From positions 3,152,411 to 3,184,410 of the forward strand of contig NC_020409.1 in NCBI RefSeq assembly GCF_000341895.1: 32,000 nt of DNA, read 5' to 3'. The position numbers were made by a program, and so were the translations under genes. The notes beneath the pieces are model-generated. The model was not told the origin of the DNA, did no database searches, and worked only from the letters and a program-made list of their open reading frames with translations. Each line of letters opens with the position of its first letter. Position 1 is the stretch's first letter. This DNA is from Pseudodesulfovibrio piezophilus C1TLV30 (GTDB taxonomy: Bacteria; Desulfobacterota; Desulfovibrionia; Desulfovibrionales; Desulfovibrionaceae). Positions 2,529 through 23,413 of this stretch are shown piece by piece.

Positions 2529-3902
2529 ATGTTATTAAGACATACTAAAAAAGAAGTTGCTGACCGCAAGGCTCTGGTGATCAATCCGGCCAAGACATGT
2601 CAGCCTATCGGAGCCATGTACGCCGCCCTCGGTATTCACGGCTGCCTGCCTCATAGCCATGGTTCTCAGGGGTGCTGTGCGTATCATCGCTCCACCCTGA
2701 CACGTCACTATAAGGAACCCATTTCGGCCGCGACCAGTTCCTTTACTGAAGGAGCATCGGTTTTTGGCGGACAGGCCAACCTGGTGCAGGCCATCGACAA
2801 TATCTTCACGGTCTACGAGCCTGAAGTTATCGCAGTGCACACCACGTGTCTGTCCGAGACCATTGGTGATGACCTGAACCAGATTCGTACCAAGGCTCAG
2901 AAAGAAGGAAAGATCCCTGAAGGCAAGACTGTCATCGGAGCTCCCACTCCGAGCTATGTCGGTTCCCACGTCACCGGATTCTCCAATATGGTGAAAGCCA
3001 TGGCTCAGTTGGCTGAACCGTCTGGCAAGAAATCCGGCAAGGTCAATGTCATCCCCGGTTGGGTCGAACCTTCCGATATGGCCGAGATCAAGCGTCTCGC
3101 TGGTTTGATCGGTGTGGACATCACTCTGTTCCCTGATACTTCCGGTGTTCTCGATGCTCCGCTGACCGGAGAATACAAGATGTTCCCTGATGGAGGCGTT
3201 ACCGTCTCCGAACTCAAGAAGAGTGGCGATGCCATTGGAACTCTCGCTCTGGGTGAGTGGTGTTCGGCAGACGCTGCCCGCTGGCTCGATTCCAAATGCA
3301 AGGTGCCGTGCACTGTGCTGGATATGCCATTCGGACTGGCTGCCACTGACCGTTTCATTGATGTTCTGCGTACCGTGGCCGGAGTCTCTGTCCCCGATGC
3401 CGTGGCCACTGAACGTGGTCAGCTCGTGGATATGATTTCCGACATGCACCAGTACTTCTACGGCAAGCGTGTTGCCATCTGGGGCGACCCAGATCAGCTC
3501 ATCTCCATGTGTGAATTCCTGGTCTCTCTGGACATGCAACCCGTGTATGTCGTGACCGGAACTCCGGGCAAGAAGTTCGAGAAGCGGATTCAGGAAATCT
3601 GTGAAGGGCAGCCCTTTGAAGTCAAAGTCAAGGCCAAAGGCGATATGTTCCTGATGCACCAGTGGATCAAGAACGAGCCTGTCGATCTGCTTATCGGAAA
3701 TACCTATGGCAAGTACATTGCCCGTGACGAGGACATCCCGTTCTTGCGCTGGGGCTTCCCGATCCTGGATCGCCAGGGTCACCAGTACTTCCCGACAGTT
3801 GGCTACAAGGGCGGGCTCAGGTTGCTTGAAAAGATCCTGACCCTGTTCCTGGACCGTAAGGACCGCGACGATCCAGAACGGGTATTCGAACTCGTCCTGT
3901 AG
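2529..3902 (+). CDS. nifK: Nitrogenase MoFe protein beta chain NifK (short N-terminus type)
   Basis: 457-aa ORF with NifK motifs (NPAKTCQPIGA, HGSQGCCAY, TTCLSETIGDD, GFPI.DR). Follows nifD by 19 nt. Confidence 0.97.
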   Translation: MLLRHTKKEVADRKALVINPAKTCQPIGAMYAALGIHGCLPHSHGSQGCCAYHRSTLTRHYKEPISAATSSFTEGASVFGGQANLVQAIDNIFTVYEPEVIAVHTTCLSETIGDDLNQIRTKAQKEGKIPEGKTVIGAPTPSYVGSHVTGFSNMVKAMAQLAEPSGKKSGKVNVIPGWVEPSDMAEIKRLAGLIGVDITLFPDTSGVLDAPLTGEYKMFPDGGVTVSELKKSGDAIGTLALGEWCSADAARWLDSKCKVPCTVLDMPFGLAATDRFIDVLRTVAGVSVPDAVATERGQLVDMISDMHQYFYGKRVAIWGDPDQLISMCEFLVSLDMQPVYVVTGTPGKKFEKRIQEICEGQPFEVKVKAKGDMFLMHQWIKNEPVDLLIGNTYGKYIARDEDIPFLRWGFPILDRQGHQYFPTVGYKGGLRLLEKILTLFLDRKDRDDPERVFELVL

Positions 3903-3913
3903 CACTCCCATAC

Positions 3914-3949
3914 CCGCGGCGGAGAGCTTCCCCCTCCGCCGCGGCTTTT
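3914..3949 (+). terminator. Rho-independent terminator after nifK
   Basis: Perfect 11-bp stem: CCGCGGCGGAG (3914-3924) pairs with CTCCGCCGCGG (3934-3944). The loop is 9 nt and is followed by CTTTT. Confidence 0.7.
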
Positions 3950-4070
3950 GAAAGAGGCCCGATTGCCACGACGTCCACCTTTTGACATTCCGGTCCGACG
4001 GGCTGGACCGGAATACTTCTCCGGCATTCGGACCTTTTTGAAAAGCCGTAACATACAAAGGATACGCAGC

Positions 4071-5246
4071 ATGGCACCCAGCTCCACTTCATACGATACC
4101 CATCCTTGCTTCGGCCTTGCTTCACGCAAGAATGTCGGACGCCTGCATCTTCCTGTCGCTCCCCGGGCGAATTCAAAAATCAGATTTTCTGGTTTGATCA
4201 AGGCCAAGTCCGCCATGCTTCCGGAGGAGGCCATGACCTGGCTTAAAAGCGTGATATCCGAAGGGACAACTGTCGATGTCGTTGGGATTACCGGTCCCGG
4301 CGATCCCATGGCTGTGCCTGAGCCGACCCTTCGGACATTGAACATGGTTCATGCAGAATTTCCGAAAATTTCATTGTGCATGACCACCGTTGGTATCGGG
4401 AGTGCCAAGTATGCATCTGAACTGGCCGCACTCGGGCTTTCCCATGTCACATTGCTGGTGGACGCCGTCTCTCCAGAGGTCGCAGAGAACCTGTACGCCT
4501 GGGTTAGACCGTCAACCAAGACGGTTCCATTACCGGAAGCGGTTCAGCTTTTGATGAAAGATCAGGCCGATGCCGTGGTTGCTTTCAAGGAAGCAGGAAT
4601 CACCGTCAAGATCAATACCACGGTCTATCCGGGGATTAACGCCGGGCATGTGGAAGAGATCGCCTCAACCATGGCGAGCCTCGGCGCCGATATCATGGCA
4701 GTGGTTCCCTACAGGCCGGACCCTGACTGTACCGATGCTCCCGCCGAATGCGGTGCGGAGCTTATGGACACCATTCGCGAGGGGGTGGCGCGTCACCTGC
4801 ATCTCATGCCTGCCTGGGAGGACTGTGGCGAGGACATCGTCGGTCTGACTTCACTCGAAAAGCGCGACGCCCCTATTTCTGTGCTGCCCAAGCCCATAGC
4901 CGATCGTCCCAACGTGGCCGTTGTCAGTTCAGGTGGTATGGACGTGGACCTGCATCTTGGCCACGCGGTCAAGGTTTTGATCTATGGCCCACGAGAAGAT
5001 GGCCTGCCATGTCTGCTGGAATCCAGGGATGCGCCTGAACCCGGTTCCGGTTCCAGGCGTTGGAAAGACCTTTCCAAGCTGCTGAAGGATTGCTTTGTGC
5101 TCCTGACCGCGAGTGCAGGCGAAAAACCACGACAAATTTTGAGCCGCGATGGGCTGTCAGTCCTGATCACCGATGGGGAGATCGCAGGGACGGTAGACGT
5201 GCTTTATGGCGGCGGAAAAAAAGGCAAGAAATTCCGCAAACAATAG
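4071..5246 (+). CDS. NifB-like protein lacking the radical-SAM CxxxCxxC motif, with NifX-like C-terminal domain
   Basis: By eye it is collinear with the true NifB at 8989-10263: HPCF, GRLHLPVAP, GPGDP, LSHVT, LGADI and a NifX-like tail. Where NifB has CNIQCNYC, this protein has ANSKIRFS. The start was trimmed from the track TTG at 3948, which lies inside the terminator, to the ATG at 4071. Confidence 0.8.
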   Translation: MAPSSTSYDTHPCFGLASRKNVGRLHLPVAPRANSKIRFSGLIKAKSAMLPEEAMTWLKSVISEGTTVDVVGITGPGDPMAVPEPTLRTLNMVHAEFPKISLCMTTVGIGSAKYASELAALGLSHVTLLVDAVSPEVAENLYAWVRPSTKTVPLPEAVQLLMKDQADAVVAFKEAGITVKINTTVYPGINAGHVEEIASTMASLGADIMAVVPYRPDPDCTDAPAECGAELMDTIREGVARHLHLMPAWEDCGEDIVGLTSLEKRDAPISVLPKPIADRPNVAVVSSGGMDVDLHLGHAVKVLIYGPREDGLPCLLESRDAPEPGSGSRRWKDLSKLLKDCFVLLTASAGEKPRQILSRDGLSVLITDGEIAGTVDVLYGGGKKGKKFRKQ

Positions 5247-5261
5247 CGAGGAGAATCAATC

Positions 5262-5564
5262 ATGGCCGTACCTGAGAGAATGATCATTTGTTGTCAGAGT
5301 TTTCGTGCAGCAGGCGAACCCAAAGGCATCTGTCACAAGCAGACCGATGGTTTCCTGCAGTACATCGAGGAAGAAATCCTGGACCGTGGTCTGGATGCCC
5401 TGGTTGTCGCCACAACCTGTCTCAAGCAGTGTGAATCCGGTCCGATCATGGTCGTTCAGCCTGAGAACTGGTGGTTCAAGGGTGTGGATAGTGAAGCGGT
5501 CATTGATGAGATTCTTGATGCTTTGGAAGACGGCGAACCCTGCGCTGCTTACCTTGCCGCATAA
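5262..5564 (+). CDS. Thioredoxin-like [2Fe-2S] ferredoxin
   Basis: 100-aa ORF with the Cys pattern CC-x12-C ... C-x3-C (IICCQSF, GICHK, TTCLKQCESGP), typical of thioredoxin-fold 2Fe-2S ferredoxins. GAGGAGA RBS. Confidence 0.8.
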   Translation: MAVPERMIICCQSFRAAGEPKGICHKQTDGFLQYIEEEILDRGLDALVVATTCLKQCESGPIMVVQPENWWFKGVDSEAVIDEILDALEDGEPCAAYLAA

Positions 5565-6044
5565 AAATTGAGAGAGTCCGATGTCTGAAGCCGCCGTCAT
5601 CCGCCCCGCAATGAGTGTCCCCTTGACAGGGTACAGTGCTCCGCTCAGGTCGCTGACCTTTATGAGAGAGAGTGTCACGCTTGATGCACTGGAGCTGCGG
5701 CGCGGTCTGGAAAAGATGCTGAACAACGGTCGGGGACGCATCCTGATCGCGTCGAGTTCCAGCATGACTGAAGCTGGAGCCTGTTCGGGGCTTTTGATGG
5801 CACCCATGGCTCAAGACAGTCCCGCCCTCCCGAAAGGGAACATGCTTTCCCCAGTGGGAAGGCGGGACTCGGACATCGGTTCACAGTTGCAAGACAGGGG
5901 CACGGGACGGGGACTGCGCTCGGAGACGGCTCGAATACGTTTCGGGAAGGCATCGCCCCTGCCATCCTTTGCCCACTGTCCTGTTGTTAACAGACCGGAA
6001 TTCCGGCTGTCATGTTCAGGGACCAACTCATAAGGGGAAGACTC

Positions 6045-7430
6045 ATGAGTACGACGATCTTGGAAGAAAGAAAGGATCAGATCCACCGGACCGGTGAGGG
6101 CGCTATTGACATCGCCTGCAATCGTGAATCCTTGGCGGGCGCGGTCAGCCAGCGTGCGTGTGTATTCTGTGGTTCCCGCGTGGTTCTGTATCCTATTGCC
6201 GATGCCCTACATCTTGTGCATGGCCCCATCGGTTGTGCTGTCTATACCTGGGATATCCGGGGAGCGCTTTCCAGTGGCCCGGAGCTTCATAGGCTTTCCT
6301 TTTCTACGGACCTTCAGGAGATCGATGTCATTTTCGGTGGGGAAAAGAAGCTGTCGGCAGCGCTTGATGAATTGATTGACCGGCATCAGCCCAAGGCTGC
6401 TTTTGTCTACTCCACCTGTATTGTCGGTTTGATCGGTGATGATCTTGAAGCCGTCTGTCGCAAAATGAGCGAAGAGAAGGGGATTCCGGTTCTGCCGGTC
6501 ATGTCCGAGGGATTCAAGGGAAACAAGAGAGCTGGGTATCTTGCCGCGTGCAAGGCGATGTTCCGGTTGATCGGCACACGCGATACTTCAGGGATTACTC
6601 CCATATCCATCAATATTTTTGGCGATTTCAATCTCGCTGGCGAGATATGGATCATTCGCGAATATTTCAGGCGCATGGGCGTGGAAGTCGTGGCAAACGT
6701 CACGGGTGATGGCCGTGTCAACGACATTGGGCGCTGCCATGGTGCCGCCTTAAATCTCGTCCAATGTTCTGGTTCAACTCTTGATCTGGCCAAAATGATG
6801 GAAGAAAAATATGGGATTCCCTATTTGCGGGTCTCCTATCTCGGTATCGAGGATATGGCTGATTCGCTCTATCAGGTGGCCGACTTTTTCAAGGATCAGG
6901 ATACTGGGATCGTTGAACGCACCCAGGAGCTTGTCCGTGAAGAACTTGCCTCGCTCATGCCTGAATTGGCCCAGTACAGGAAAGATTTGGATGGGAGAAA
7001 AGTTGCTATGTACGTCGGCGGTTCTTTCAAGGCTTTCTCGCTGGTCAAGGCATTTCGTCACCTCGGCATGAAGGTTGTCATGGTCGGGTCCCAGACCGGG
7101 ACCAAGGAAGATTATGCCGAATTGGAGCAGATCACTGATCCGGGCACAATCATTGTTGATGATGCCAACCCCTTGGAACTTTCCGCGTTCATCAAGGAAA
7201 AGGACGTCGATCTTTTTGTGGGTGGCGTCAAAGAGCGGCCTATAGCCTACAAATTGGGCGTTGGCTTTTGTGATCATAACCACGAACGCAAAGAAGCATT
7301 GGAAGGTTTCGAAGGTATGCTCAATTTTGCTCGTGAAGTTCATTCCTCTGTCATGTCCCCCGTGTGGAATTTTGTGCCCCGTCGCGCCAATCGCGTGCTT
7401 GAAGCCGAAAAGGAGGCTGTCAATGAGTAA
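6045..7430 (+). CDS. nifE: Nitrogenase FeMo-cofactor biosynthesis scaffold NifE
   Basis: NifD-like fold with NifE motifs (ACVFCGSR, HGPIGCA, STCIVGLIGDD, GFCDHNHER). The ATG at 6045 follows AAGGGGAAG; the track start at 6012 was trimmed. Confidence 0.93.
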   Translation: MSTTILEERKDQIHRTGEGAIDIACNRESLAGAVSQRACVFCGSRVVLYPIADALHLVHGPIGCAVYTWDIRGALSSGPELHRLSFSTDLQEIDVIFGGEKKLSAALDELIDRHQPKAAFVYSTCIVGLIGDDLEAVCRKMSEEKGIPVLPVMSEGFKGNKRAGYLAACKAMFRLIGTRDTSGITPISINIFGDFNLAGEIWIIREYFRRMGVEVVANVTGDGRVNDIGRCHGAALNLVQCSGSTLDLAKMMEEKYGIPYLRVSYLGIEDMADSLYQVADFFKDQDTGIVERTQELVREELASLMPELAQYRKDLDGRKVAMYVGGSFKAFSLVKAFRHLGMKVVMVGSQTGTKEDYAELEQITDPGTIIVDDANPLELSAFIKEKDVDLFVGGVKERPIAYKLGVGFCDHNHERKEALEGFEGMLNFAREVHSSVMSPVWNFVPRRANRVLEAEKEAVNE

Positions 7431-8799
7431 TGCTTCCACCAAGAAAACAGCTCGACCGAACTTTGTTTCAACAACCAATGCTTGCAAGCTGTGTACTCCA
7501 TTAGGGGCGGCAATGGCTTTTCGTGGCATCGAAGGAGCCATCCCGTTTCTGCACGGTTCTCAGGGATGCGCCACGTATATGCGCCGATATGTCATTTCCC
7601 ATTTTCGCGAACCCGTGGATATCGCCTCTTCGGCTTTGGGTGAGAAAAATGCCATTTATGGCGGTGGCCCGAACCTGAAAAAGGGTGTGCTCAATGTCAT
7701 GAAGAAATATGAGCCGAAGCTCATCGGTGTGGCGACCACCTGCCTGACCGAAACCATTGGTGATGACGTCCGTATGATTCTCAAGGAATTTCATGGTGAA
7801 TTTGGTGATCTGGATCTGCCTGAGATCGTGCATGTTTCCACTCCCAGCTACAATGGGACTCATACGGATGGATGGCATGGTGCCGTGCGTTCGCTGGTGG
7901 AACAACTCTGTACGACCAAGGCAGAGGAGGCCAATCGAGTCAATATCCTGCCTAACATGGTCTCCTGTGAAGATGTTCGCCAGCTGCATGACATCTGTCG
8001 TGATTTCGGCATCATGGGAACGATATTGCCGGATATTTCCGAAACCTTGGATGGTCCGACACTGGAGGATTATGTGAAAATACCCTCCGGTGGAACCACT
8101 CTCGAGGATATCAAGACCATGTCCGGCTCAAGGGCGACTATTGAATTTGGTCGTTGCCTTCCACAGTCCACAGGGGGAACCAGTCTGGAATCGATATTTG
8201 GTGTCAAAAATCATCGTTTAGGTCTTCCTATCGGATTGCGGGAGTCTGATCGCTTTTATGAGGCTCTCGAAGCTCTTTCCGGGACGCCTATGCCTCGGCG
8301 GTACGAATTGGAACGCGGCCGGCTGATTGATGCCTATGTTGATGGGCATAAATATGTCTTCGGAAAACGAGCTGTGGTTTATGGCGAAGAAGACCTTGTG
8401 GCCGGCCTGTGCGCCTTTCTTGCCGAGATTGGTATTGATGTTGTTCTGGCAGGAACAGGTTCTCGCAACAAAGGGCTGGAGAATGCCATTGCAGCTGTCA
8501 CGGATGGTGTGGCCCGTCGTGCTCCGGAAGTCCGTGAAGGTGTGGATTTTCAGGATATAGCGGATGAGGCTGAAACGTTGAAGCCGGATCTGCTTATTGG
8601 GCATTCCAAAGGGTACAAGTACGCCAAGGCGTGGAACATTCCGTTGGTGCGGGTAGGATTTCCGATTCATGATCGCTTTGGCGGGCAACGGGTACTCCAT
8701 CTTGGGTATAAAGGAGCACTCAACCTTTTTGACATGATCGTCAACACGGTCATCGACAAGAAGCAGACAGAGAGCCCTATCGGCTATGGATATATTTAA
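7423..8799 (+). CDS. nifN: Nitrogenase FeMo-cofactor biosynthesis scaffold NifN
   Basis: NifK-like with NifN motifs (NACKLCTPLGA, HGSQGC, TTCLTETIGDD, GFPIHDR). The ATG at 7423 overlaps the nifE stop (ATGAGTAA) and AAGGAGG lies upstream. The track start at 7261 is inside nifE. Confidence 0.9.
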   Translation: MSNASTKKTARPNFVSTTNACKLCTPLGAAMAFRGIEGAIPFLHGSQGCATYMRRYVISHFREPVDIASSALGEKNAIYGGGPNLKKGVLNVMKKYEPKLIGVATTCLTETIGDDVRMILKEFHGEFGDLDLPEIVHVSTPSYNGTHTDGWHGAVRSLVEQLCTTKAEEANRVNILPNMVSCEDVRQLHDICRDFGIMGTILPDISETLDGPTLEDYVKIPSGGTTLEDIKTMSGSRATIEFGRCLPQSTGGTSLESIFGVKNHRLGLPIGLRESDRFYEALEALSGTPMPRRYELERGRLIDAYVDGHKYVFGKRAVVYGEEDLVAGLCAFLAEIGIDVVLAGTGSRNKGLENAIAAVTDGVARRAPEVREGVDFQDIADEAETLKPDLLIGHSKGYKYAKAWNIPLVRVGFPIHDRFGGQRVLHLGYKGALNLFDMIVNTVIDKKQTESPIGYGYI

Positions 8800-8988: not shown

Positions 8989-10263
8989 ATGAGTAGCAAG
9001 GACACAACCAAGCACCCCTGTTTCAATAAGGAAACCGCAGGTAGCTGCGGCCGCGTACATCTACCCGTAGCGCCCAAGTGCAACATTCAATGCAACTACT
9101 GCAATCGCAAATATGACTGTGTCAACGAGTCGCGTCCCGGCGTGACAAGTGGTGTGCTCAAGCCGTTTCAGGCCGCTGAATACATGGATAAGGTCTTGGA
9201 AAAGGAGCCGCGTATCACTGTCGCGGGTATTGCCGGACCTGGCGATCCTTTTGCCAATCCTACTGAAGTGTTGGAAACCATGCGGCTGCTCAATCAGCGT
9301 CACCCTGAATTGCTCTTTTGTCTCTCCAGCAATGGCATGGGCATCCTGCCGTATCTAGATGATATTGCGGAGCTTGGTGTTTCCCATGTGACCATCACCA
9401 TCTCGGCTGTCGACCCTGTCATCGGCGCTCAAATCTATTCATGGGTCAAAGATGGCAACGTTGTCTATCGTGGAGAGAAAGGGGCTGAAATACTCCTTGA
9501 CCGCCAGCTCAAAGCAATCAAAGGCCTCAAGGAACGGGGGATTGTCGTCAAGGTCAATTCCATCGTTATCCCAGGTGTCAATGAAGAGCATCTTGTGGAA
9601 GTTGCCAAGGTTGTTTCTGCCCTGGGTGCAGATATCCAAAACATGATTCCGATCAAACCGACACAGGATACACCCTTTGCCGAAGTTCCCGAACCGGGCA
9701 AGGAAACCGTACTCCCCCTGCGGAAGGAAGCCGGTGAATACATTTCGCAGATGACGCATTGCAAGCGGTGTCGAGCCGATGCAGTGGGCTTGCTGGGGAA
9801 TGATCAATCCGTGGCCTTGTGCGGGACCCTCAAGGCGTGTGCGTCGCTCAAGCCGATAGAAGTGAAGATGCCCAAGCCGTATGTAGCGGTTGCGACTCGT
9901 GAGGGTATGCTCGTCAATCAACACCTGGGTGAAGCCAAGAGTTTTCAGATTTGGGGGGAAGCGGAAACCGGTGGATTTCACATGATCGAAGAACGAAAAG
10001 CTCCTAATGCAGGCTGCGGTCCCAAACGATGGGCAGATCTCGCTGCCATGCTCAATGACTGTAGGGCGGTCTTGGCTGCTGCCATGGGTGAAACGCCACA
10101 AATGCTCTTGGAAGAGCATGGTGTGAAAGCACATGTTGTAGACGGTTTTATTCAGGATGCCTTGGCGGTTGTTTTCAGTGAGGGTGACATTAAGACTCTC
10201 AAAGGTCGCCGTGGCGGCATCGGTGGAGCCTGTTGTACCGGAACCGGTACTTCCTGCGGATAA
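8989..10263 (+). CDS. nifB: Radical SAM FeMo-cofactor biosynthesis protein NifB (with NifX-like C-terminal domain)
   Basis: Contains HPCF, LPVAPKCNIQCNYCNRKYDC (intact CxxxCxxC), GPGDP, HCKRCRADAVG and a NifX-like C-terminus. The ATG at 8989 follows AGGAG. Confidence 0.95.
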   Translation: MSSKDTTKHPCFNKETAGSCGRVHLPVAPKCNIQCNYCNRKYDCVNESRPGVTSGVLKPFQAAEYMDKVLEKEPRITVAGIAGPGDPFANPTEVLETMRLLNQRHPELLFCLSSNGMGILPYLDDIAELGVSHVTITISAVDPVIGAQIYSWVKDGNVVYRGEKGAEILLDRQLKAIKGLKERGIVVKVNSIVIPGVNEEHLVEVAKVVSALGADIQNMIPIKPTQDTPFAEVPEPGKETVLPLRKEAGEYISQMTHCKRCRADAVGLLGNDQSVALCGTLKACASLKPIEVKMPKPYVAVATREGMLVNQHLGEAKSFQIWGEAETGGFHMIEERKAPNAGCGPKRWADLAAMLNDCRAVLAAAMGETPQMLLEEHGVKAHVVDGFIQDALAVVFSEGDIKTLKGRRGGIGGACCTGTGTSCG

Positions 10264-10333
10264 TATGTCCAATAGAGGAACGATCGCTGAAATATCTTGG
10301 CGCTCGTGAACCATTAGCATAGGAGAACCGTCG

Positions 10334-10579
10334 ATGAACAAGGCTACACTCGAGAAGGTCTTTGAGTACGCGTCAAAACCTGTCCAGGGGACAATGTCGC
10401 GAAAACTCCGCAAAGATGTGAAAATTCAGGTCAACGAGGGAGAAGTCTACGAAGGCGCAACCCTGTTCCTGGGCGAAGAATTCGTCCGCGTCACCTGTAC
10501 GCAGGATGGGTCCAATATCAACACTTACTATGATTGGGAAAAGATCATTTCGGTCCGTACTATCGGGGCAGTTGAATAA
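10334..10579 (+). CDS. Hypothetical small protein (81 aa), nif-linked
   Basis: AGGAGAA lies 7 nt upstream of the ATG. Same strand as nifB and 70 nt downstream of it, followed directly by a strong terminator. I recognise no family. Confidence 0.55.
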   Translation: MNKATLEKVFEYASKPVQGTMSRKLRKDVKIQVNEGEVYEGATLFLGEEFVRVTCTQDGSNINTYYDWEKIISVRTIGAVE

Positions 10580-10673: not shown

Positions 10674-12758
10674 TTATGCTTTGCTCACGGTCACGAAATG
10701 TTCCTGCATGGCGATGGCTCCACCGCCTTTGTCCCACTTCGTGATTCCCTTGGGCATCAGTTCATTGTCGGCAACACCTCGCCCCTGTGCGCGAGATTCG
10801 CACGGGAGAGTGTGCCCGAAACCATGGATCATGAAGACTGCTTCAGGATGGATAAAATCAGTGACGAAGGCCTTTATTTCACCGGAATGGCCATTGTTGG
10901 AAATGGTGACGGTGTCATCAGTGCTGATCCCGAGTTTTTTGGCCCGTTCACTGTTGATCCACAAGGTGTTCTCGGGCATTTGTTCAAAGAGGAGTGAATT
11001 GTTGACCGTATGTCCCTGGGTATGCAGGGCACATCGGCCAAAGGTGATACGGAATTTGTCCAGAGGGGGAAGTTCTGGTGATTCATAAGGCTTGAGGGAG
11101 AGCTGGCCGTCTCCTTCCAGTTTCTCGTCAATGACCTGAACCTTGCCCGAAGGAGTCTTGAAAGAACCGTCCTTAACCGGTTTGTATGTTGGCGAATCAG
11201 CCAGATCCACAATTCCGGTTTCATCAAAGTCGGCAATGGAAACCCCTGTCCCTTCGAGCTGGAAGTTCCAAAGGTCTTCGACGTTGTCCATGGCCAGTTC
11301 ATCAAGCCCAAACCGTTTTGCCAGACCTGCGTATATTTCCCAGATGGCTTTGGTATCATAGAGTGGTTCCATGGCCCGTTTGCGCATTTGGAAACATGGT
11401 TTGGGGCCATTTTTGGTCATGATCTGATCGTCTCTTTCCAGATAGGGTGAGATCGGCAGGATGACATCAGAATACCAGGCGGTGTCTGACCAGGAAAATG
11501 TGACAGCAACCAGCAATTCGATGTTTTCCCACAATACCTTAACATCGGCAGAGTCTGGGAAGGCCATGAGAGGGTCATGGCGTTGGGCAATGTATGCCTT
11601 GACCGGATACGGGGAACCTTGGGCAACACTTTCATAGGCGAGATTGACTAATCCCGGTCCCGCATCAAAGTGCTTGCGTCCATCCATCCAGCCGATACCG
11701 TCTGCGCGTTGTCCTTCCGGTTTGGGATAGAGTTCCATGAAGCTTTTAAGTCCCTTGGCACCCACATCGCCGGGCTTGTTCATGAAAGGAAGGCCACCCT
11801 TGGCTCCGATAGCTCCGAGCAGGGCGTTGATTATGTACGCCGTGCGAGACATATAGAAGGAGTCCGAGTAGCGGGCGGTCATCCAACCAGGATGCCAGAC
11901 AACACTGGGCGCGGCCTCTCCGAGTTGCTGTGCAAGGTCGCGGATGGAATCTGCATTGACCCCGGTTTCTTTTTCGGCCCATTCCGGTGTGTACTGGGCG
12001 ACAAAGCTCTTGAGGGCGTCGAAATCCTGCATCCAATCTGCCACAAATTGTTTGTCATAGAGTTCTTCAGCGATAATGACATTGATGACGGCCAGGTTGA
12101 ATGCGTAATCTGTTCCGGGGCGAATCAGAAAGAAATTATCCGCTTTGGTCGCAGTGATGTTAGCACGAATGTCGATGACCGAGAGTTTGGCTCCGTTTTT
12201 CATGCCTGTCAGAACATTGTTGACTTCTGCAACATTGATTGCCTCGAAGATATTACGCTGCTGTACAATGATATGCTTGGCGTTCTTGAAATCATAAGAA
12301 ACACCCTTGCGGCCGAATCCGAAGACTGACAACGCTGCATTCTGCACGTTACGGGCGCAAGCCGAATCATGGTTGTTGTAATTGACCGTCCCAATCCCAC
12401 GCAGAAACGCACGGTAGAAATCTCTGAATGGACCTCCACGATCCGAAAAAAGAACGGAGTTCTTACCGTGTTCAGCCTGGATGGCCTTGAGTTTGTCTGC
12501 GACATGGTCAAGAGCTTCATCCCACGAGACTCGTTTCCATTTTCCTTCGCCTCGTTCTCCCTGACGAATCATCGGGTATTGAGGGCGTTCCTCATCGTAG
12601 GTGAGAGCAGTGCCAGCGGCACCGCGAGGACAGAGTGCACCCTTGAGAGCCTTCGGGCTTCCCTGAATGTATTCGGCCTTGCCATCCACCACTTCAACCT
12701 GAATGGGACAGCGGACCGAACACATGCCGCACATGCTGTTTACATATTCCTTACTCAT
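10674..12758 (-). CDS. Molybdopterin (bis-MGD) oxidoreductase catalytic subunit, PsrA/PhsA-like, no Tat signal
   Basis: N-terminal 4Fe-4S motif CGMCSVRC...C begins at residue 10. A candidate Mo-ligand context NHDSACARN is present, along with family-typical blocks (IRPGTDYA, SDVILP, FGHT). The ATG at 12758 follows AGGAGGAG. No RRxFLK twin-arginine leader. Confidence 0.88.
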   Translation of the reverse strand: MSKEYVNSMCGMCSVRCPIQVEVVDGKAEYIQGSPKALKGALCPRGAAGTALTYDEERPQYPMIRQGERGEGKWKRVSWDEALDHVADKLKAIQAEHGKNSVLFSDRGGPFRDFYRAFLRGIGTVNYNNHDSACARNVQNAALSVFGFGRKGVSYDFKNAKHIIVQQRNIFEAINVAEVNNVLTGMKNGAKLSVIDIRANITATKADNFFLIRPGTDYAFNLAVINVIIAEELYDKQFVADWMQDFDALKSFVAQYTPEWAEKETGVNADSIRDLAQQLGEAAPSVVWHPGWMTARYSDSFYMSRTAYIINALLGAIGAKGGLPFMNKPGDVGAKGLKSFMELYPKPEGQRADGIGWMDGRKHFDAGPGLVNLAYESVAQGSPYPVKAYIAQRHDPLMAFPDSADVKVLWENIELLVAVTFSWSDTAWYSDVILPISPYLERDDQIMTKNGPKPCFQMRKRAMEPLYDTKAIWEIYAGLAKRFGLDELAMDNVEDLWNFQLEGTGVSIADFDETGIVDLADSPTYKPVKDGSFKTPSGKVQVIDEKLEGDGQLSLKPYESPELPPLDKFRITFGRCALHTQGHTVNNSLLFEQMPENTLWINSERAKKLGISTDDTVTISNNGHSGEIKAFVTDFIHPEAVFMIHGFGHTLPCESRAQGRGVADNELMPKGITKWDKGGGAIAMQEHFVTVSKA

Positions 12759-12852
12759 CGTCTCCTCCTGAAAATCCGGGGGTAAATTGCAGTACTTTTT
12801 TGTAGAATGCACGCTAGCAACGTGCGTCAAGCAACTGCAACAAGTTACCCTG

Positions 12853-16463: not shown

Positions 16464-17432
16464 TTGAAAACACAGTCAATGACAAAACAGAGATCTGCTG
16501 CCTTCTTACACCAGTTTGTGACACTTCTTTGTGTAATGACGCTGTTTGTGTGTGCCGTGTCACTTTCCGGGTGTAGTGATGAAGAACCCGTGGTCAGGGT
16601 GGATTTGACCAGGCTGGCGAAGATTACCGCCCCGGAGCGCAAAGAAGCTATTACCTATGCCTATTTGCCTCAATATTCTCATACCATATCATACAAGCGT
16701 CACCGAGCACTGTTGCAGTATTTGAGGCAGGTCACCGGGCTGCCGTTGCGCCAGATATTTCCGGATACCTTTGACGAACACATTGCCATGGTTCAGCGTG
16801 GTGAGATCGATATCTCGTATTCCAATCCTTTTGTGTACATCAAGCTTGCCGAAGCAGGGGCCACGGCTTTTGCAAGGATCATCGAGCCGTCCGGCAAACC
16901 CAATTTTCAGGGACAGGTCATCTGTCGAGCTGATAATCCGACTATTGCCTCATTGAGCGATTGTCGGGGGAAGAGCTGGATTGCCGTGGACCCAGGGTCT
17001 GCCGGAGGATATCTTTTCCCACGAGGTCTTTTTTATGACCATGGTATCGGAATGAAGGACTTCTCCGAAGTGGATTTTGCGCCTGGACCGGGTGGAAAAC
17101 AGGAAAAAGTGGTGCTGGCGGTCCATGCGGGAGCCTATGATATCGGGACCATCCGAAAAGGAACACTGGATATTGTGGCCGGGAAGATTGATCTGAGTGA
17201 TATCCGTGTGCTGGCCGAGACCAGAAATTATCCCGGTTGGGTCTATTCAGCTCGAAAAGGGTTGGACCCCGAGGTCGTCAAGACGCTTGCTCAGGCCATG
17301 TTCGCTCTGGATTACGATAATGTTGATCAACAACGTATCCTGCGTGCGGCAGGCATGCGTGGTATCATACCCGCCAAGGATATAGACTATGATCCGGTTC
17401 GGGAATTGGCTGATAAACTGGGAATGAAGTAG
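16464..17432 (+). CDS. PhnD-like (phosphonate/phosphite ABC-type) periplasmic substrate-binding lipoprotein
   Basis: Lipobox LSGCS after a hydrophobic leader. PhnD-family blocks are present (YLPQYS, GEIDISYSNPFVY, WIAVDPGSAGGYLFP, AGAYD.GTI). No cognate permease or ATPase is nearby. The start is TTG at 16464 (AAAGAGGA upstream) or ATG at 16479. Confidence 0.8.
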   Translation: MKTQSMTKQRSAAFLHQFVTLLCVMTLFVCAVSLSGCSDEEPVVRVDLTRLAKITAPERKEAITYAYLPQYSHTISYKRHRALLQYLRQVTGLPLRQIFPDTFDEHIAMVQRGEIDISYSNPFVYIKLAEAGATAFARIIEPSGKPNFQGQVICRADNPTIASLSDCRGKSWIAVDPGSAGGYLFPRGLFYDHGIGMKDFSEVDFAPGPGGKQEKVVLAVHAGAYDIGTIRKGTLDIVAGKIDLSDIRVLAETRNYPGWVYSARKGLDPEVVKTLAQAMFALDYDNVDQQRILRAAGMRGIIPAKDIDYDPVRELADKLGMK

Positions 17433-17440
17433 GAGTGCTC

Positions 17441-19516
17441 ATGCGACTTGTTTCCAGGCTCAAATTTCGGACCAAGCTTAATCTCGGCATTTCCGCGATT
17501 CTCATAGCCATGGCTCTCCTACTTTTACCTCTGGTAGGCACCATGACATCCAAGACGTTGGTCGAGGAGAGCAAGAAACGCGGTTCAGCATTGGCTGAAA
17601 GCCTTGCGGCCCGAGCTGTCGAGCCTCTCCTCGCAGGCGATTTTCTGCGCCTGAAAAATATGGTTGATGAGCAGATAGCGGTTGGGGATGTGGTTTATGT
17701 TTTTGTCCAGGACAACCGGGGGCATGTGCTGACGCATACTTTTCACAAGGGATTTCCTACGGACCTGATCAAGGTCAATACCGTGGGGGACGGTTTGCTC
17801 GTTCATATCCAGTTGTTGGCTGATGGTGCTCAGCGTATCTATGATTTTGCATCACCCGTGGCAGTCGGGCGTGATCGGCTTGGCACGGTTCGGATAGGGT
17901 TATCCAAAACCCGTATCGAAGCTTCGGTGAACAGGCAACTGACCACCATGGCCGGGCTATTTGCTGGGGCGTTGTTCTTGGCCACCGCGCTGGGAACCAT
18001 TTTTGCCCGTCAGGTCGCTCTTCGGTTGGCGGCCCTCCGGCAGCACGCTGAGGCCATGTTGATGGGCAATCTCGATTCCCAATCCGGGCCATTGGACGGC
18101 GTGTATTGTTGGGAGCGGCAGGATTGCGGCCTGCGGTCCTGTCCGGCCTTTGGTGAGAAACAACGGCGATGTTGGTATATTGCCGGGACAATGTGCCCTG
18201 ATTGCAATGACGATGATACAACACAGGACTCCTGCCGGAGGTGTCGGGTATACCGGGAGAGTGCCGGGGATGAGTTACAGGATTTGGCGGAAACCTTTGA
18301 TGTCATGGCTCTCTCTCTGAAGACGCATATTGCGGAACTGCGCGGTGCTGAAAGGAATTTACGCGATCAGCAGCGGTTGATGCGAACTATTCTGGATGTC
18401 ACGCCTGACAGGGTCTCGCTGGTTGATAGCCGTATGCGCTATCAGGGGGCAAATAGGAGCTTTGCCGAATATGTCGGGCTGGCCTTGAATGAAATAGACG
18501 GCAAGACTGACTTTGATCTTTTTGATGAACAGACAGCAGAAGAACGTCACATGGCGGCACGGGATATTTTGCAGTCGGGTGAGCGGTTGGACACGCAGGT
18601 CATGGTTCGTGATGAAGATGGTGAACGCTGGTTCCACGTCGTGTGCATTCCGGTCTACAATGAGGATGGTAAAATCACCGGGCTGCTTCGGACAGATCGT
18701 GATATCACTGATATCAAAGGGTATGAGAAGCAACTCCTTCAGGCCCAGAAAATGGAATCCCTTGGTTTGATGGCTGGGGGTGTTGCCCACGAGATCAACA
18801 CTCCATTGGGTATTATCCTCGGGTACGCGCAACTGTTGCAGGAAGATGTGGAGCAGGGGAGCCTCATGCAACAGGACCTGACTGTCATCGAGAAACAGGC
18901 CAAGGTCTGCAAGAAAATCGTTTCGGACCTCCTCGGTTTTTCACGGCAGAGTCATTCCGCCAAGCGTGAAATGTGCTTCAATAATTCCGTGATGGAGGCA
19001 GTCAGCCTTGTTCGGCATACATTCGAGTTGAGCCGCGTTGAAATCGTGACTGAATTGGATGACCGTTTCCCTATCATTTATGGAGACCCGGAGAAATTGA
19101 AACAGGTCTGGATCAATCTGCTGACCAATGCCCGTGATGCCTATCCTGAAGCCGGGGGAACCATTGTCATCAGAACGAGGCTTGATACGCCGGGTGGCAT
19201 TGTCTCGCTTTGGGTCGCCGATACCGGACAGGGTATTGCCGGAGATGATCTCAAAAAGATTTTTGATCCGTTTTATAGCACCAAACCCGTGGGTTTGGGC
19301 ACTGGGCTTGGTCTCTCCGTATCCTTCGGGATTATCGAAGATCATGATGGTCATATCTATGCGGCCAGTCCGATTCCCCCGGAGTTCAAATTTCCAAGCA
19401 AGGGAGACCCCATGGGACCGGGAACTCTCTTTGAAGTCAATCTTCCTCTTGATCATAGTGTTGAGAGTCCCGTGGATATGAACTGCGCGCATGCAGTGGA
19501 AAATGATGAGACGTAA
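17441..19516 (+). CDS. Sensor histidine kinase (periplasmic domain, HAMP with Cys-rich insert, PAS, HisKA, HATPase_c)
   Basis: Two TM segments flank a ~140-aa periplasmic domain. H-box is HEINTPLG; N, G1 and G2 boxes are present (NLLTNARDA, DTGQGI, GLGTGLGLS). A PAS region is present. The ATG at 17441 follows GTAGGAG. Confidence 0.93.
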   Translation: MRLVSRLKFRTKLNLGISAILIAMALLLLPLVGTMTSKTLVEESKKRGSALAESLAARAVEPLLAGDFLRLKNMVDEQIAVGDVVYVFVQDNRGHVLTHTFHKGFPTDLIKVNTVGDGLLVHIQLLADGAQRIYDFASPVAVGRDRLGTVRIGLSKTRIEASVNRQLTTMAGLFAGALFLATALGTIFARQVALRLAALRQHAEAMLMGNLDSQSGPLDGVYCWERQDCGLRSCPAFGEKQRRCWYIAGTMCPDCNDDDTTQDSCRRCRVYRESAGDELQDLAETFDVMALSLKTHIAELRGAERNLRDQQRLMRTILDVTPDRVSLVDSRMRYQGANRSFAEYVGLALNEIDGKTDFDLFDEQTAEERHMAARDILQSGERLDTQVMVRDEDGERWFHVVCIPVYNEDGKITGLLRTDRDITDIKGYEKQLLQAQKMESLGLMAGGVAHEINTPLGIILGYAQLLQEDVEQGSLMQQDLTVIEKQAKVCKKIVSDLLGFSRQSHSAKREMCFNNSVMEAVSLVRHTFELSRVEIVTELDDRFPIIYGDPEKLKQVWINLLTNARDAYPEAGGTIVIRTRLDTPGGIVSLWVADTGQGIAGDDLKKIFDPFYSTKPVGLGTGLGLSVSFGIIEDHDGHIYAASPIPPEFKFPSKGDPMGPGTLFEVNLPLDHSVESPVDMNCAHAVENDET

Positions 19517-19525
19517 GGAGCTGTC

Positions 19526-19885
19526 ATGGCAAATATTATAGTAGTTGATGATGTTTCTGATGCCGGAATGCTGGTCAAGCGGATTCTCGAACGCAAGGGA
19601 CACAGCGTGACCGCTTTCACTGAGGAAGAGGAGGCTCTGAAACATGCCGCTGAAAAGCAGGTGGACCTGGCGATTCTTGATATCAAGCTTAAGAAAATGA
19701 CCGGCGTGGATGTGTTGGAAGAACTCAAGAAACTCAACCCCGAAACCAAGGCCATCATGTTGACCGGATATCCGACCTTGGAAACCGCACGGGAATCATT
19801 GCGTCTTGGGGCACAGGAATACTGTGTCAAACCCATTAATAAAGATGAACTGGAAACCAAAGTCGCCGAGGTCATGGGAGAATAG
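19526..19885 (+). CDS. Stand-alone receiver (CheY-like) response regulator
   Basis: DD at residues 8-9, phospho-acceptor context LAILDIKL, then LTGY and VKP. No output domain. Confidence 0.93.
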   Translation: MANIIVVDDVSDAGMLVKRILERKGHSVTAFTEEEEALKHAAEKQVDLAILDIKLKKMTGVDVLEELKKLNPETKAIMLTGYPTLETARESLRLGAQEYCVKPINKDELETKVAEVMGE

Positions 19886-19887
19886 AC

Positions 19888-22350: not shown

Positions 22351-23413
22351 CAAATCTGCCGCGTATGAGGTGACATGGGTGACTGACCAGCTTGGTGTCG
22401 GCCATGCGCCCATGAGCTATCCTCAGCTTGAAGCTATCAGGGCGGAAGGAGTGGATGCCATCCTCAACTTGTGCGGTGAGTTCTGTGATCTGCATGATAT
22501 CGAAACCGGTGCCGGGTTTGAGGTGCATTATCTTCCTCTGGCCGATGAAGAAGCGCCTGGACTGATCGAGTTGGAAAAGGCATTGGAATGGCTTGATGAA
22601 GCGATTTATCTTGGTAAGAAGGTGCTTATTCACTGTCGCCATGGGATTGGCCGGACCGGGACAGTGCTCAATGCCTATCTGCTTCGACGAGGGTTGGGGC
22701 ACAAAATGGCAGGCAAGGCGCTCAAGAAACTCAAGAGCAAACCCGCCAATTTCGTTCAGTGGCGGACAGTACGCAAATACGGCAAACAGTCTGGCCAGCT
22801 CAGGGTGCGGGAACCGTCTCTGGAATTCAAACGACTGGTGGATCTCTCCCCGTTTTTTAATGATTATGAAGAAGTGGTTCAACGGGTGGAAGAGCGGGCC
22901 GGAAAAAATGGAGGAGGCGAAGCCTGCGGGCTGGATCATGATCAGTGTTGCCGGACACCTGTTCGGGTTTCGCTTGTGGAAGCAGTTCACATAAGCCACC
23001 GGATCAATACGGAACTGACCTGTGAGCAACGGCTTTCGGTCATTGAGCGTGCCGTTGAAACGGCGCAGGCTGAGCGGAGAGCAGCCTCTGCCATCGGCGT
23101 GGATGGGGAAAATCTGGAATACTGTCTCTCCGAAGTCGGTGCAGTCTGTCCTCTTTTGAGAAAGAGGCAATGCATGTTGTTTGAATACCGCCCTATACAA
23201 TGCCGTGCTTTTGGGCAGGATCAAAGTTTGGATGGAGAGCTGTGGAGCACACTCCTCACTCCGGCTCTTGAAAAAATTTCATCGGAAATCTGGTTTGCTT
23301 ATACCGGGTCAATGGCTGGCTCCCTTCCGCTTTTCTCTTTTCCTGACGTGGTCTCGGGAAAATTTATGGAAATGATCTTCAAGTTGATGATGGAACAGGG
23401 ATTGGAGTCCTGA
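22328..23413 (+). CDS. Dual-specificity (Cys-based) protein phosphatase fused to YkgJ/UPF0153-type Cys-rich domain
   Basis: P-loop VLIHCRHGIGRTG (the CX5R motif). The C-terminal half has C-x7-CC and CPLL...QC...RP..CR, typical of CxxCxxCC-family domains. The start is ATG 22328 or 22313, and either overlaps the upstream gene. Confidence 0.82.
   Translation: MLGWKKRNKSAAYEVTWVTDQLGVGHAPMSYPQLEAIRAEGVDAILNLCGEFCDLHDIETGAGFEVHYLPLADEEAPGLIELEKALEWLDEAIYLGKKVLIHCRHGIGRTGTVLNAYLLRRGLGHKMAGKALKKLKSKPANFVQWRTVRKYGKQSGQLRVREPSLEFKRLVDLSPFFNDYEEVVQRVEERAGKNGGGEACGLDHDQCCRTPVRVSLVEAVHISHRINTELTCEQRLSVIERAVETAQAERRAASAIGVDGENLEYCLSEVGAVCPLLRKRQCMLFEYRPIQCRAFGQDQSLDGELWSTLLTPALEKISSEIWFAYTGSMAGSLPLFSFPDVVSGKFMEMIFKLMMEQGLES

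Follow-up and report, generated by a model that had tools for sequence, protein, structure and literature searches.

The nif cluster in the 32,000-nucleotide stretch of Pseudodesulfovibrio piezophilus C1TLV30 DNA analysed here (the window) contains, in addition to a canonical nifB (8989-10263, +), a gene of the NifB type that is located beside nifK and whose product lacks all three cysteines of the radical S-adenosylmethionine (SAM) motif CX3CX2C. This raises the question of what a NifB that has lost its radical-SAM (RS) cluster site might do next to nifK. The gene, here called 'psiB', lies at 4071..5246 (+) and encodes 391 amino acids plus stop, without any internal stop codon. Its ATG at 4071 is preceded 8 nt 5′ by a Shine-Dalgarno-like AAAGGA (4057..4062, +; read directly from the sequence), and its product has the length of WP_015416177.1 of P. 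piezophilus, with which it shares 99% identity. The reading favoured in the following, which on the sequence evidence has about an even chance of being right, is that the protein acts as a non-catalytic carrier or chaperone of NifB-co or of FeMo-co, the iron-molybdenum cofactor.

A BLASTP comparison with the NifB of the window, which has an intact CNIQCNYC motif, yielded 33% identity over 404 columns spanning the whole length (E 2e-75), with the blocks HPCF, GR(L/V)HLPVAP, GPGDP, SHVT, LGADI and the C-terminal domain in common. Translation and BLASTP thus bear out the first-pass annotation, a model's reading of the letters of this DNA, which had described an intact 391-codon NifB paralogue with shared blocks. 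Alignment likewise confirmed the substitutions it had listed: C31-NIQ-C35-NY-C38 of NifB is replaced by the degenerate A33-NSK-I37-RF-S40 (4167..4190, +), the three former cysteine codons reading GCG (A33), ATC (I37) and TCT (S40), and the HCKRC region is indeed reduced to a single Cys within W249-E-D-C252 (4815..4826, +). The latter is the remnant of the CxxC pair of K2 ligands of NifB, with C258 changed to Trp and C261 kept as C252. Furthermore, a 16-residue deletion after the motif removes the NifB loop RKYDCVNESRPGVT including its flexible-loop Cys44; in the M. thermautotrophicus (Mth) enzyme, the flexible-loop Cys/Glu is C52/E53 (PMC8179604). Finally, the SxNG strand of NifB has lost its Asn (TTVG/TTLG).

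In the close subclade of 115 homologues, mostly Desulfovibrionaceae, the loss of the ligands is shared; the former motif positions hold A/S/T, I/T/S/V and A/S/G and never a conserved Cys. A compensating Cys column was found nowhere in the whole family, represented by 60 sequences, and at the former motif and around it neither Cys nor His nor another ligand has been conserved. Since all three RS-cluster cysteines are lost, no NifB chemistry is expected of the protein, and the claim that it cannot perform such radical chemistry stands: as predicted from its sequence, it cannot ligate the RS [4Fe-4S] cluster, cannot cleave SAM and cannot make NifB-co. That it might still be an enzyme, either through SAM or nucleoside binding without an RS cluster (as a methyl donor or sensor) or through unconventional cluster ligation, is highly improbable. 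The invariance of the GPGDP block (G75, G77), a GGE-type SAM-contact motif in NifB, and a Pfam radical-SAM core still above threshold would fit such an activity; however, GPGDP may be purely structural, the SxNG Asn is gone, and the Ala/Ser, Ile/Thr and Ala/Ser at the former motif positions have no conserved ligand nearby. To our knowledge, there is also no radical SAM chemistry that proceeds without a site-differentiated cluster.

The 120 best homologues in a collection of 5.8 billion proteins (50-99% identity) all lack CX3CX2C, and a sequencing error or one-off mutation was ruled out on the grounds that the substitutions are common to 120 out of 120 of these nearest relatives. An exhaustive HMMER scan of 1.84 billion cluster representatives added ~60 motif-less clusters at the 50%-identity level, with canonical NifBs turning up only from ~40% identity downward. 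Altogether, the full-length RS-less homologues retrieved as intact open reading frames (ORFs) number more than 240 and reach down to ~30% identity, a count obtained from predicted proteins, among which frameshifted copies would not be listed. All organism-named members belong to the Thermodesulfobacteriota. Named genera are Pseudodesulfovibrio, Maridesulfovibrio, Desulfovibrio, Salidesulfovibrio, Desulfocurvus, Humidesulfovibrio and Alkalidesulfovibrio; further members come from Desulfobulbaceae including Ca. Electrothrix gigas, from Desulfobacterales and from metagenome-assembled genomes (MAGs) labelled 'Thermodesulfobacteriota'.

In databases, members of the family go by the names 'radical SAM protein', 'NifB/NifX family molybdenum-iron cluster-binding protein' and 'nitrogen fixation protein NifB', and NCBIfam has no model for an RS-less NifB paralogue family. 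Exact look-ups of the psiB product and of the protein P0313 gave no match. A species description lists 'nifB_1, nifB_2' in a Pseudodesulfovibrio nif cluster without comment (PMC11505543), and the largest NifB survey dropped 28% of annotated NifBs that failed a motif filter, most of them without Cx3Cx2C, and took the latter for mis-annotated NifX (PMC5715403). Apart from such unannotated mentions and this filtering remark, the literature search for an RS-less NifB paralogue in sulfate reducers yielded nothing, and an RS-less form goes unmentioned in a review on NifB homologues from 2026. These searches are in accordance with the earlier statement that no characterised role is known. The family is recorded in databases but not recognised or characterised as a pseudo-enzyme derivative of NifB.

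Both modules of NifB can still be recognised in the protein. Pfam PF04055 (Radical_SAM) matches residues 47-199 with 34.2 bits (gathering threshold 29.5), the match spanning profile positions 26-164 only, so that the Cys-motif segment is missed. It marks what is left of the radical-SAM fold, a partial TIM-barrel core (residues 46-215; 4206..4715, +) that includes the invariant GPGDP and YAWIRP (W144, R146) blocks. The NifX/NafY-type cofactor-binding domain follows at residues 279-380 (4905..5210, +), with invariant His295 (4953-4955) and Cys341 (5091-5093), a Cys314 (5010-5012, +) that is conserved within the subclade, and a PF02579 (Nitro_FeMo-Co) score of 26.3 bits that equals the cut-off of 26.3 exactly. 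The protein ends in the basic tail GGKKGKKFRKQ (5211..5243, +; family motif LYGGGKKGK(C)KK), with a net charge of +5.8. By the NCBIfam nifB model (TIGR01290; equivalog cut-off 343.65), the paralogue scored 167 bits and the NifB of the window 381 bits.

An AlphaFold2 model built on a 61-sequence alignment gave a NifB fold with a mean predicted local distance difference test (pLDDT) value of 85.7 and a predicted template modelling score of 0.74. Confidence was high for the barrel (pLDDT 90-98), good also for the NifX-like domain, and low for the N terminus, the linker 255-270 and the tail; since its pLDDT lies below 50, the tail is predicted to be probably flexible. In a Foldseek search, the NifB structures 7bi7, 7jmb, 7jma and 6y1x were the top PDB matches (E ~1e-21, target-normalised template modelling score 0.79-0.93), other radical SAM enzymes ranking far weaker, and a sequence search against the PDB also returned NifB structures (E 1.6e-50 for 7jma). 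A phmmer search with the NifX-like domain of the paralogue alone gave no match in the PDB; the family profile of this domain, in turn, matched the NafY core 1p90 (6.7e-6) and NifX 9ian_E (2e-4).

It is this second domain in which conservation is concentrated. Mean column conservation amounts to 0.65 in the NifX-like domain, 0.50 in the barrel, 0.32 in the N terminus and 0.27 in the linker, and 12 columns are invariant among the 60 representatives: G75, G77, G108, R146, H295, G297, R319, R330, W331, D340, C341 and P353. His295, present in 60 out of 60, falls in the profile alignment (HLG) on NifX His35 and on the HFG His of NafY (His121), and a 'DC' Cys is likewise common to this domain and the NifX/NafY-type carriers. 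NifX His35 was identified as the apical NifB-co ligand in NifEN-NifX structures obtained by cryo-electron microscopy (PMC13128457) and NafY His121 as a key FeMo-co ligand (PMC8496260), while the cofactor His is missing in NifY and NafX (PMC13128457); in contrast to these two, the paralogue family always keeps it. The basic tail is retained as well: GGG[KR][KR] occurs within the last 30 residues of 184 of the 244 full-length RS-less homologues, and nearly all of the ~60 further clusters end in the family tail motif.

Some of the terminal sequences are also rich in cysteine. In many members outside the Desulfovibrionaceae HPCF is replaced by short N-terminal CC, CxC or CCC runs (for example in P0131, P0132, P0135, P0140, P0150, P0166 and P0176), and about half (104/201) have a Cys inside the basic tail; from their composition, such Cys-rich termini may form extra metal- or cluster-binding sites. 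The NifB of the window itself has a Cys-rich C terminus (10204-10260; GGACCTGTGTSCG) where the paralogue has Lys, and similar tails of Cys and Gly are found at the end of many canonical NifB representatives.

The fate of the other cluster sites differs between the subclade and the family. Five NifB K-cluster ligands are strictly conserved, namely C18, H31, C115, C260 and C263 in Mth numbering (PMC8179604, PMC7145814), and four of these five positions are kept in the Desulfovibrionaceae subclade including the window. Cys13 of HPCF (4107-4109, +) corresponds to C18 and is found in 97% of the close subclade and 50% of the family; the respective values are 98% and 15% for His26 (4146-4148, +; H31), 95% and 15% for Cys103 (4377..4379, +; the K1 ligand C115, or Cys129 in Ma) and 96% and 18% for Cys252 (within 4815..4826, +; C263). 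The equivalent of C260 is Trp249, with Trp in 77% of the close subclade.

Whether the gene is maintained or merely persists was assessed by the ratio of nonsynonymous to synonymous substitution rates (dN/dS). For the paralogue this ratio was 0.58 between loci L002 and L003 (95% confidence interval (CI) 0.41-0.87; dS 0.16), 0.45 between L006 and L007 (95% CI 0.33-0.61) and 0.39 between L001 and L002 (95% CI 0.29-0.50), and hence below 1 throughout (0.39-0.58). In the same pairs, nifD, nifK, nifE, nifN, nifB and the ferredoxin gene gave 0.03-0.20 (ferredoxin 0.03-0.15), the nifN and nifB values of L006/L007 being mapping artefacts of a truncated contig that were ignored. By region, the ratio was lowest in the NifX-like domain (0.24-0.49), with values of 0.37-0.49 for the barrel and of about 0.5-0.8 for the linker. 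The paralogue is under real but relaxed purifying selection, far less than the core nif genes.

The relaxed constraint lends some weight to the view that the protein is a slowly decaying relic that lost its function together with the RS motif, has no role of its own and persists owing to its place in the operon, to translational coupling or to weak structural constraints. This view would fit a dN/dS 3-6x that of the neighbours, a nearly neutral linker and N terminus, the progressive erosion of cluster ligands across the family, and the lack of the gene in one diazotroph-type cluster. Nevertheless, it appears quite improbable, as 1 lies outside the 95% CI of dN/dS in each of the three pairs, the more than 240 homologues are intact as far as a predicted-protein search can tell, the 12 invariant columns include the cofactor-ligand His, the tail motif is conserved, and the position of the gene is fixed over at least three named orders. 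On the basis of the intact ORFs, the invariant columns and a dN/dS below 1, a pseudogene was ruled out, and the initial impression of a protein maintained rather than decayed holds, with synteny in its support and with the reservation that constraint is 3-6x weaker than in the nif neighbours.

The genomic context was compared for an RS-less copy in 14 contexts (the window, L001-L007, L009, L010 and L012-L015) and for the RS-retaining copy of Megalodesulfovibrio (Desulfovibrio) gigas (M. gigas; L011). In the window, psiB is preceded by nifI1 (117-470), nifI2 (470-844), nifD (854-2509) and nifK (2529-3902), all on the forward strand and assigned from the ORF list together with Pfam P-II (nifI1, nifI2) or Oxidored_nitro (nifD, nifK) matches at the same positions in related loci; their products have orthologues with 72-94% identity in the same order in L001-L007 (BLASTP), and nifH, lying upstream of the window, was not scored for it. 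The order nifI1-I2-D-K-paralogue-ferredoxin-nifE was found in the window, L001-L004, L006 and L007, continuing to nifN-nifB where the contig reaches that far. L005 contains the same genes, but an insertion of ~5 kb separates nifK from the paralogue. L009, L010 and L014 keep nifH-I1-I2-D-K-paralogue-ferredoxin without adjacent nifENB, L012 and L015 have other small ORFs between the ferredoxin end of the unit and nifENB, and the contig of L013 begins inside the gene 5′ of the paralogue, with nifH-K not readable there. In every locus read, a gene for a 2Fe-2S ferredoxin of ~100 amino acids lies directly 3′ of the paralogue, and in all contexts with an RS-less copy the paralogue sits between this gene and nifK as far as nifK can be read. 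Since the order holds even without adjacent nifENB, which is the situation in several Desulfobulbales and Desulfobacterales loci, nifHI1I2DK-paralogue-ferredoxin is to be regarded as the conserved unit. The description of the gene as embedded between nifK and nifE is correct for the window, but does not apply to those loci in which nifENB is not adjacent. A hidden Markov model (HMM) of the NifX-like domain found two such domains per nif locus, in the paralogue and in NifB, and no stand-alone nifX/nafY-type gene in these nif loci. The canonical nifB is encoded further downstream in seven out of seven loci that extend past nifEN (L001-L003, L007, L011, L012, L015).

The neighbouring ferredoxin gene (5262..5564, +) starts with an ATG 15 nt past the psiB stop, as noted before, and encodes a thioredoxin-like 2Fe-2S protein of 100 amino acids and pI 4.2, which matches the NCBIfam models fdxn_Clost (49.5 bits) and fdxn_Azotob (36.6 bits) below their cut-offs. 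The linkage to this gene and to nifDK could also mean that the paralogue, together with the ferredoxin, donates or stores Fe-S clusters for NifDK or takes part in its maturation, for example in P-cluster assembly or protection, instead of trafficking NifB-co or FeMo-co. Consistent with this idea, the ligand geometry of the NifB K-cluster site is P-cluster-like (PMC8179604) and the paralogue still has four of these ligands, Cys-rich N termini and a Cys within the basic tail occur in many members, and the very acidic ferredoxin contrasts with a basic N terminus and tail. We still regard it as unlikely, given that the barrel ligands are gone in most of the family, that the residues kept without exception belong to a NifX-type cofactor site, and that N. 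vulgaris Hildenborough has the ferredoxin without the paralogue, so the two are separable.

The steps by which a NifB may have been disarmed can be followed in two forms that retain the RS motif. In M. gigas, the nifK-adjacent paralogue (L011 8001-9212, AUBO01000025.1; P0188, WP_021759917.1, 403 aa) is part of the order nifK-paralogue-ferredoxin-nifE-N-B and keeps CNIQCKYC, a YDC loop and a CCTHC pair; the basic tail is already present, and the HPCF Cys and the C111 equivalent are absent. A related form with a retained CX3CX2C is WP_167590508.1 of Oceanidesulfovibrio indonesiensis. In MaNifB, the RS and K2 ligands reportedly suffice for both SAM cleavage and methyl transfer (PMC7145814), and from its sequence the M. 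gigas paralogue may be a partly active second NifB that is still able to cleave SAM. A neighbour-joining tree with 100 bootstraps placed the nifK-adjacent paralogues including the RS-retaining forms in one clade apart from the canonical NifBs (99/100), with the RS-retaining forms branching at its base and the RS-less proteins forming one group (70/100); the canonical NifBs of the same organisms group together within the NifB clade. This topology suggests one old duplication of nifB followed by loss of the RS site, where a single loss is a tentative inference because of the neighbour-joining method and the long branches.

Pseudo-enzymes often pair with active paralogues, and it is conceivable that the protein forms a heteromer with active NifB as a non-catalytic partner subunit, tuning its activity, stability or product release, or presenting to it a K1-type [4Fe-4S] substrate cluster. 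The basal M. gigas paralogue would be complementary in this respect, as it has kept the RS motif and CxxC and lost the HPCF Cys and C111. In addition, the barrel with its invariant surface and structural blocks is under purifying selection, the K1-type ligands C13, H26 and C103 are kept in the subclade of the window, and a canonical nifB is present in every locus reaching past nifEN. Against such a partnership, the gene travels with nifDK and not with nifB, nifENB being non-adjacent in several loci; the K1-type ligands are not kept family-wide; and the NifX-like domain, not the barrel, is best conserved. Moreover, the archaeal NifBs of solved structure consist of a single domain and are functional in assays of FeMo-co synthesis that contain no such paralogue (PMC13474568). 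This possibility is therefore considered rather unlikely.

The carrier or chaperone reading is preferred because the NifX-type His, the basic tail and, in the subclade, the residual K-cluster ligands are what is conserved, which agrees with the carrier or scaffold role proposed in the first-pass annotation. An old nifB duplicate would have settled beside nifK and then lost its radical-SAM [4Fe-4S] site, becoming a pseudo-enzyme of which the NifB-type barrel, the NifX/NafY-type cargo domain with its invariant His and the flexible basic tail were kept under selection. Presumably co-expressed with nifHI1I2DK and the 2Fe-2S ferredoxin, the protein might pick up the 8Fe precursor NifB-co or finished FeMo-co at the His295 site, with the old K-cluster pocket as a possible second cluster site in the Desulfovibrionaceae subclade, hold the cofactor protected and pass it to NifEN or apo-NifDK. 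The inactivated barrel and the basic tail would then serve as docking or tethering modules, parallel to known carriers, in which a cargo domain with the His is joined to a tether: according to the cited literature, NifX is anchored on NifE through the helices of its C terminus and through salt bridges, and NafY targets apo-NifDK via its N-terminal domain. The linkage to nifDK modestly favours a NafY-like over a NifX-like direction of transfer.

Several observations weigh against this proposal. Sequence alone cannot separate a NifX-like role, with transfer to NifEN, from a NafY-like one, with transfer to NifDK. The PF02579 score of the cargo domain is only at threshold, and no experiment, expression or binding report on any family member was found. 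Because the residual K-cluster ligands are not kept family-wide (15-50% of the 60 representatives), a cluster site in the barrel pocket cannot be the common function of the family. Constraint on the gene is clearly relaxed, with a dN/dS 3-6x that of the neighbouring nif genes, and in the nif cluster on plasmid pDV1 of N. vulgaris Hildenborough nifK is followed directly by the ferredoxin gene, without a paralogue, for which reason the latter must be dispensable in at least one relative. On account of this absence and the weaker constraint, the paralogue looks accessory rather than essential.

A more far-reaching version of the carrier proposal is that the family is an unrecognised, lineage-wide nitrogenase-assembly part in Thermodesulfobacteriota: a two-site holder of L-cluster or FeMo-co, using both the old K-cluster pocket and the NifX-type His, that moves the NifB product to NifDK or NifEN where nif clusters lack NifX, NafY and NifY, and that arose by stepwise disarming of a second NifB, with intermediates like the M. 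gigas form still alive. This version is put forward tentatively and is doubtful in its full extent. Little is known of how NifB-co and FeMo-co move between maturases in anaerobic diazotrophs, whose nif clusters are mostly devoid of NifX, NafY and NifY, the carriers that have been studied in Azotobacter and Klebsiella. A conserved, disarmed NifB with a NifX-type cargo domain beside nifDK, its function being deduced only, is a concrete and testable candidate for the missing carrier.

Compared with known systems, the paralogue resembles NifB (TIGR01290; 6Y1X, 7JMB, 7BI7) in combining a partial radical-SAM barrel with a NifX-like domain, in its place in a nif cluster and, in the subclade of the window, in the equivalents of C18, H31, C115 and C263. 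It differs from NifB by the missing CX3CX2C and C52/E53 loop, the Trp in place of one K2 Cys, a Lys-rich instead of a Cys-rich tail, an HMM score of half the cut-off, its separate clade, its position after nifK and not after nifEN, and its 3-6x faster evolution. With the carriers NifX, NafY, NifY and VnfX (PF02579) it shares the domain type, with NifX and NafY also the ligand His and the combination of a cargo domain with an extra docking element, whereas its extra module is an inactivated NifB barrel of ~275 residues and not a SAM-motif domain or helices. Its position after nifHDK also resembles that of nifY or nafY in nifHDKTY operons. The M. gigas and O. indonesiensis forms belong to the same clade and have the basic tail and a similar NifX-like domain, but still contain CX3CX2C and the YDC loop and may still cleave SAM, which the protein of the window is predicted to be unable to do. 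A curator-named precedent for a radical-SAM fold without the canonical Cys triad is the 'pseudo-SAM/SPASM protein' TIGR04347 of NCBIfam, although subfamily and context are unrelated. NifEN, by analogy only, represents a nif duplicate (of NifDK) that gave up catalysis for cofactor assembly and trafficking, with a different fold and a well-characterised function.

The family may be of use beyond the question of its function. The proteins could serve as natural mimics of a product-bound state of NifB and aid structural work on L-cluster binding; M. gigas, O. indonesiensis and Alkalidesulfovibrio offer natural intermediates on the way from radical SAM enzyme to pseudo-enzyme; and an accessory carrier that relieves hold-up of the NifB product could help the engineering of minimal nif clusters. 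Labels such as 'nifB_1/nifB_2', in turn, can inflate nifB counts in annotation and diazotroph surveys.

Between nifK and psiB, a GC-rich hairpin (3914..3944, +; -26.6 kcal/mol, z -4.0) is followed by UUUU. The terminator previously assigned to nifK is thus backed by a strong hairpin but not by its short run of only four U, nor by the terminator scan, which did not call it; the element is terminator-like rather than a clear terminator, possibly an attenuator or mRNA-stabilising hairpin. A sigma-54 consensus (TGGCAC-N5-TTGC, at most one mismatch) was found neither before the paralogue nor before nifE, the number of matches not exceeding chance. Downstream of the ferredoxin gene, nifE (6012-7430, +) and nifN (about 7366-8799, +, start uncertain) lead to nifB. 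The longest nifN ORF starts with a TTG at 7261 and overlaps the nifE end by 170 nt; the true start is probably near 7366, because orthologues align only from about residue 36.

The 447-nt gap between the ferredoxin gene and nifE (5565-6011) contains a 150-aa ORF (5581-6033, +; 'orf150') for which a role as third conserved partner was rejected: neither Pfam nor NCBIfam gave a match, the composition is odd (rich in Ser, Arg and Gly), and homologues are missing from L002-L004 and from the Desulfobulbales loci, similarity being confined to the closest locus L001 (40%). The ORF is probably non-coding, and the gap may hold a promoter or regulatory region of nifENB. A conserved 143-149-aa protein without Pfam match is encoded after the ferredoxin in Desulfobulbales/Desulfobacterales-type loci (L005 ~11986-12387, L009 11682-12113, L010 11998-12447, L012 11436-11882, L013 2869-3303); it is unrelated to 'orf150' and missing from the window. 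A GNAT acetyltransferase and a Nif11-domain peptide are often also near in those loci, with none in the window.

N. vulgaris Hildenborough had been considered as a model with fitness data and was discarded, as its nif cluster on pDV1 (L008) has no paralogue; the tblastn match there proved to be the true nifB. This match (9007-10485) consists of two same-frame pieces ~300 nt apart, where only a 98-aa 'NifB/NifX family' coding sequence is listed, and nifE (5832-7166) is not in the gene table; both genes may be pseudogenes or merely unlisted, with the PLSDB table omitting pseudogenes. In L007, from the MAG Desulfovibrio sp. UBA6121, nifK (2541-3842) and nifE (5555-7151) are split over several frames, and the paralogue, ferredoxin, nifN and nifB are intact; the broken frames are most likely assembly errors of a low-quality MAG and not decay. 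In the window, the nif cluster ends at nifB and is followed by a molybdopterin oxidoreductase of 718 aa (10674-12830, -) and, at 16464-23413 (+), by genes for a phosphonate-type ABC binding protein, a Cache/PAS histidine kinase, a PEP-utilising (PPDK_N) enzyme and a DSP-type phosphatase.

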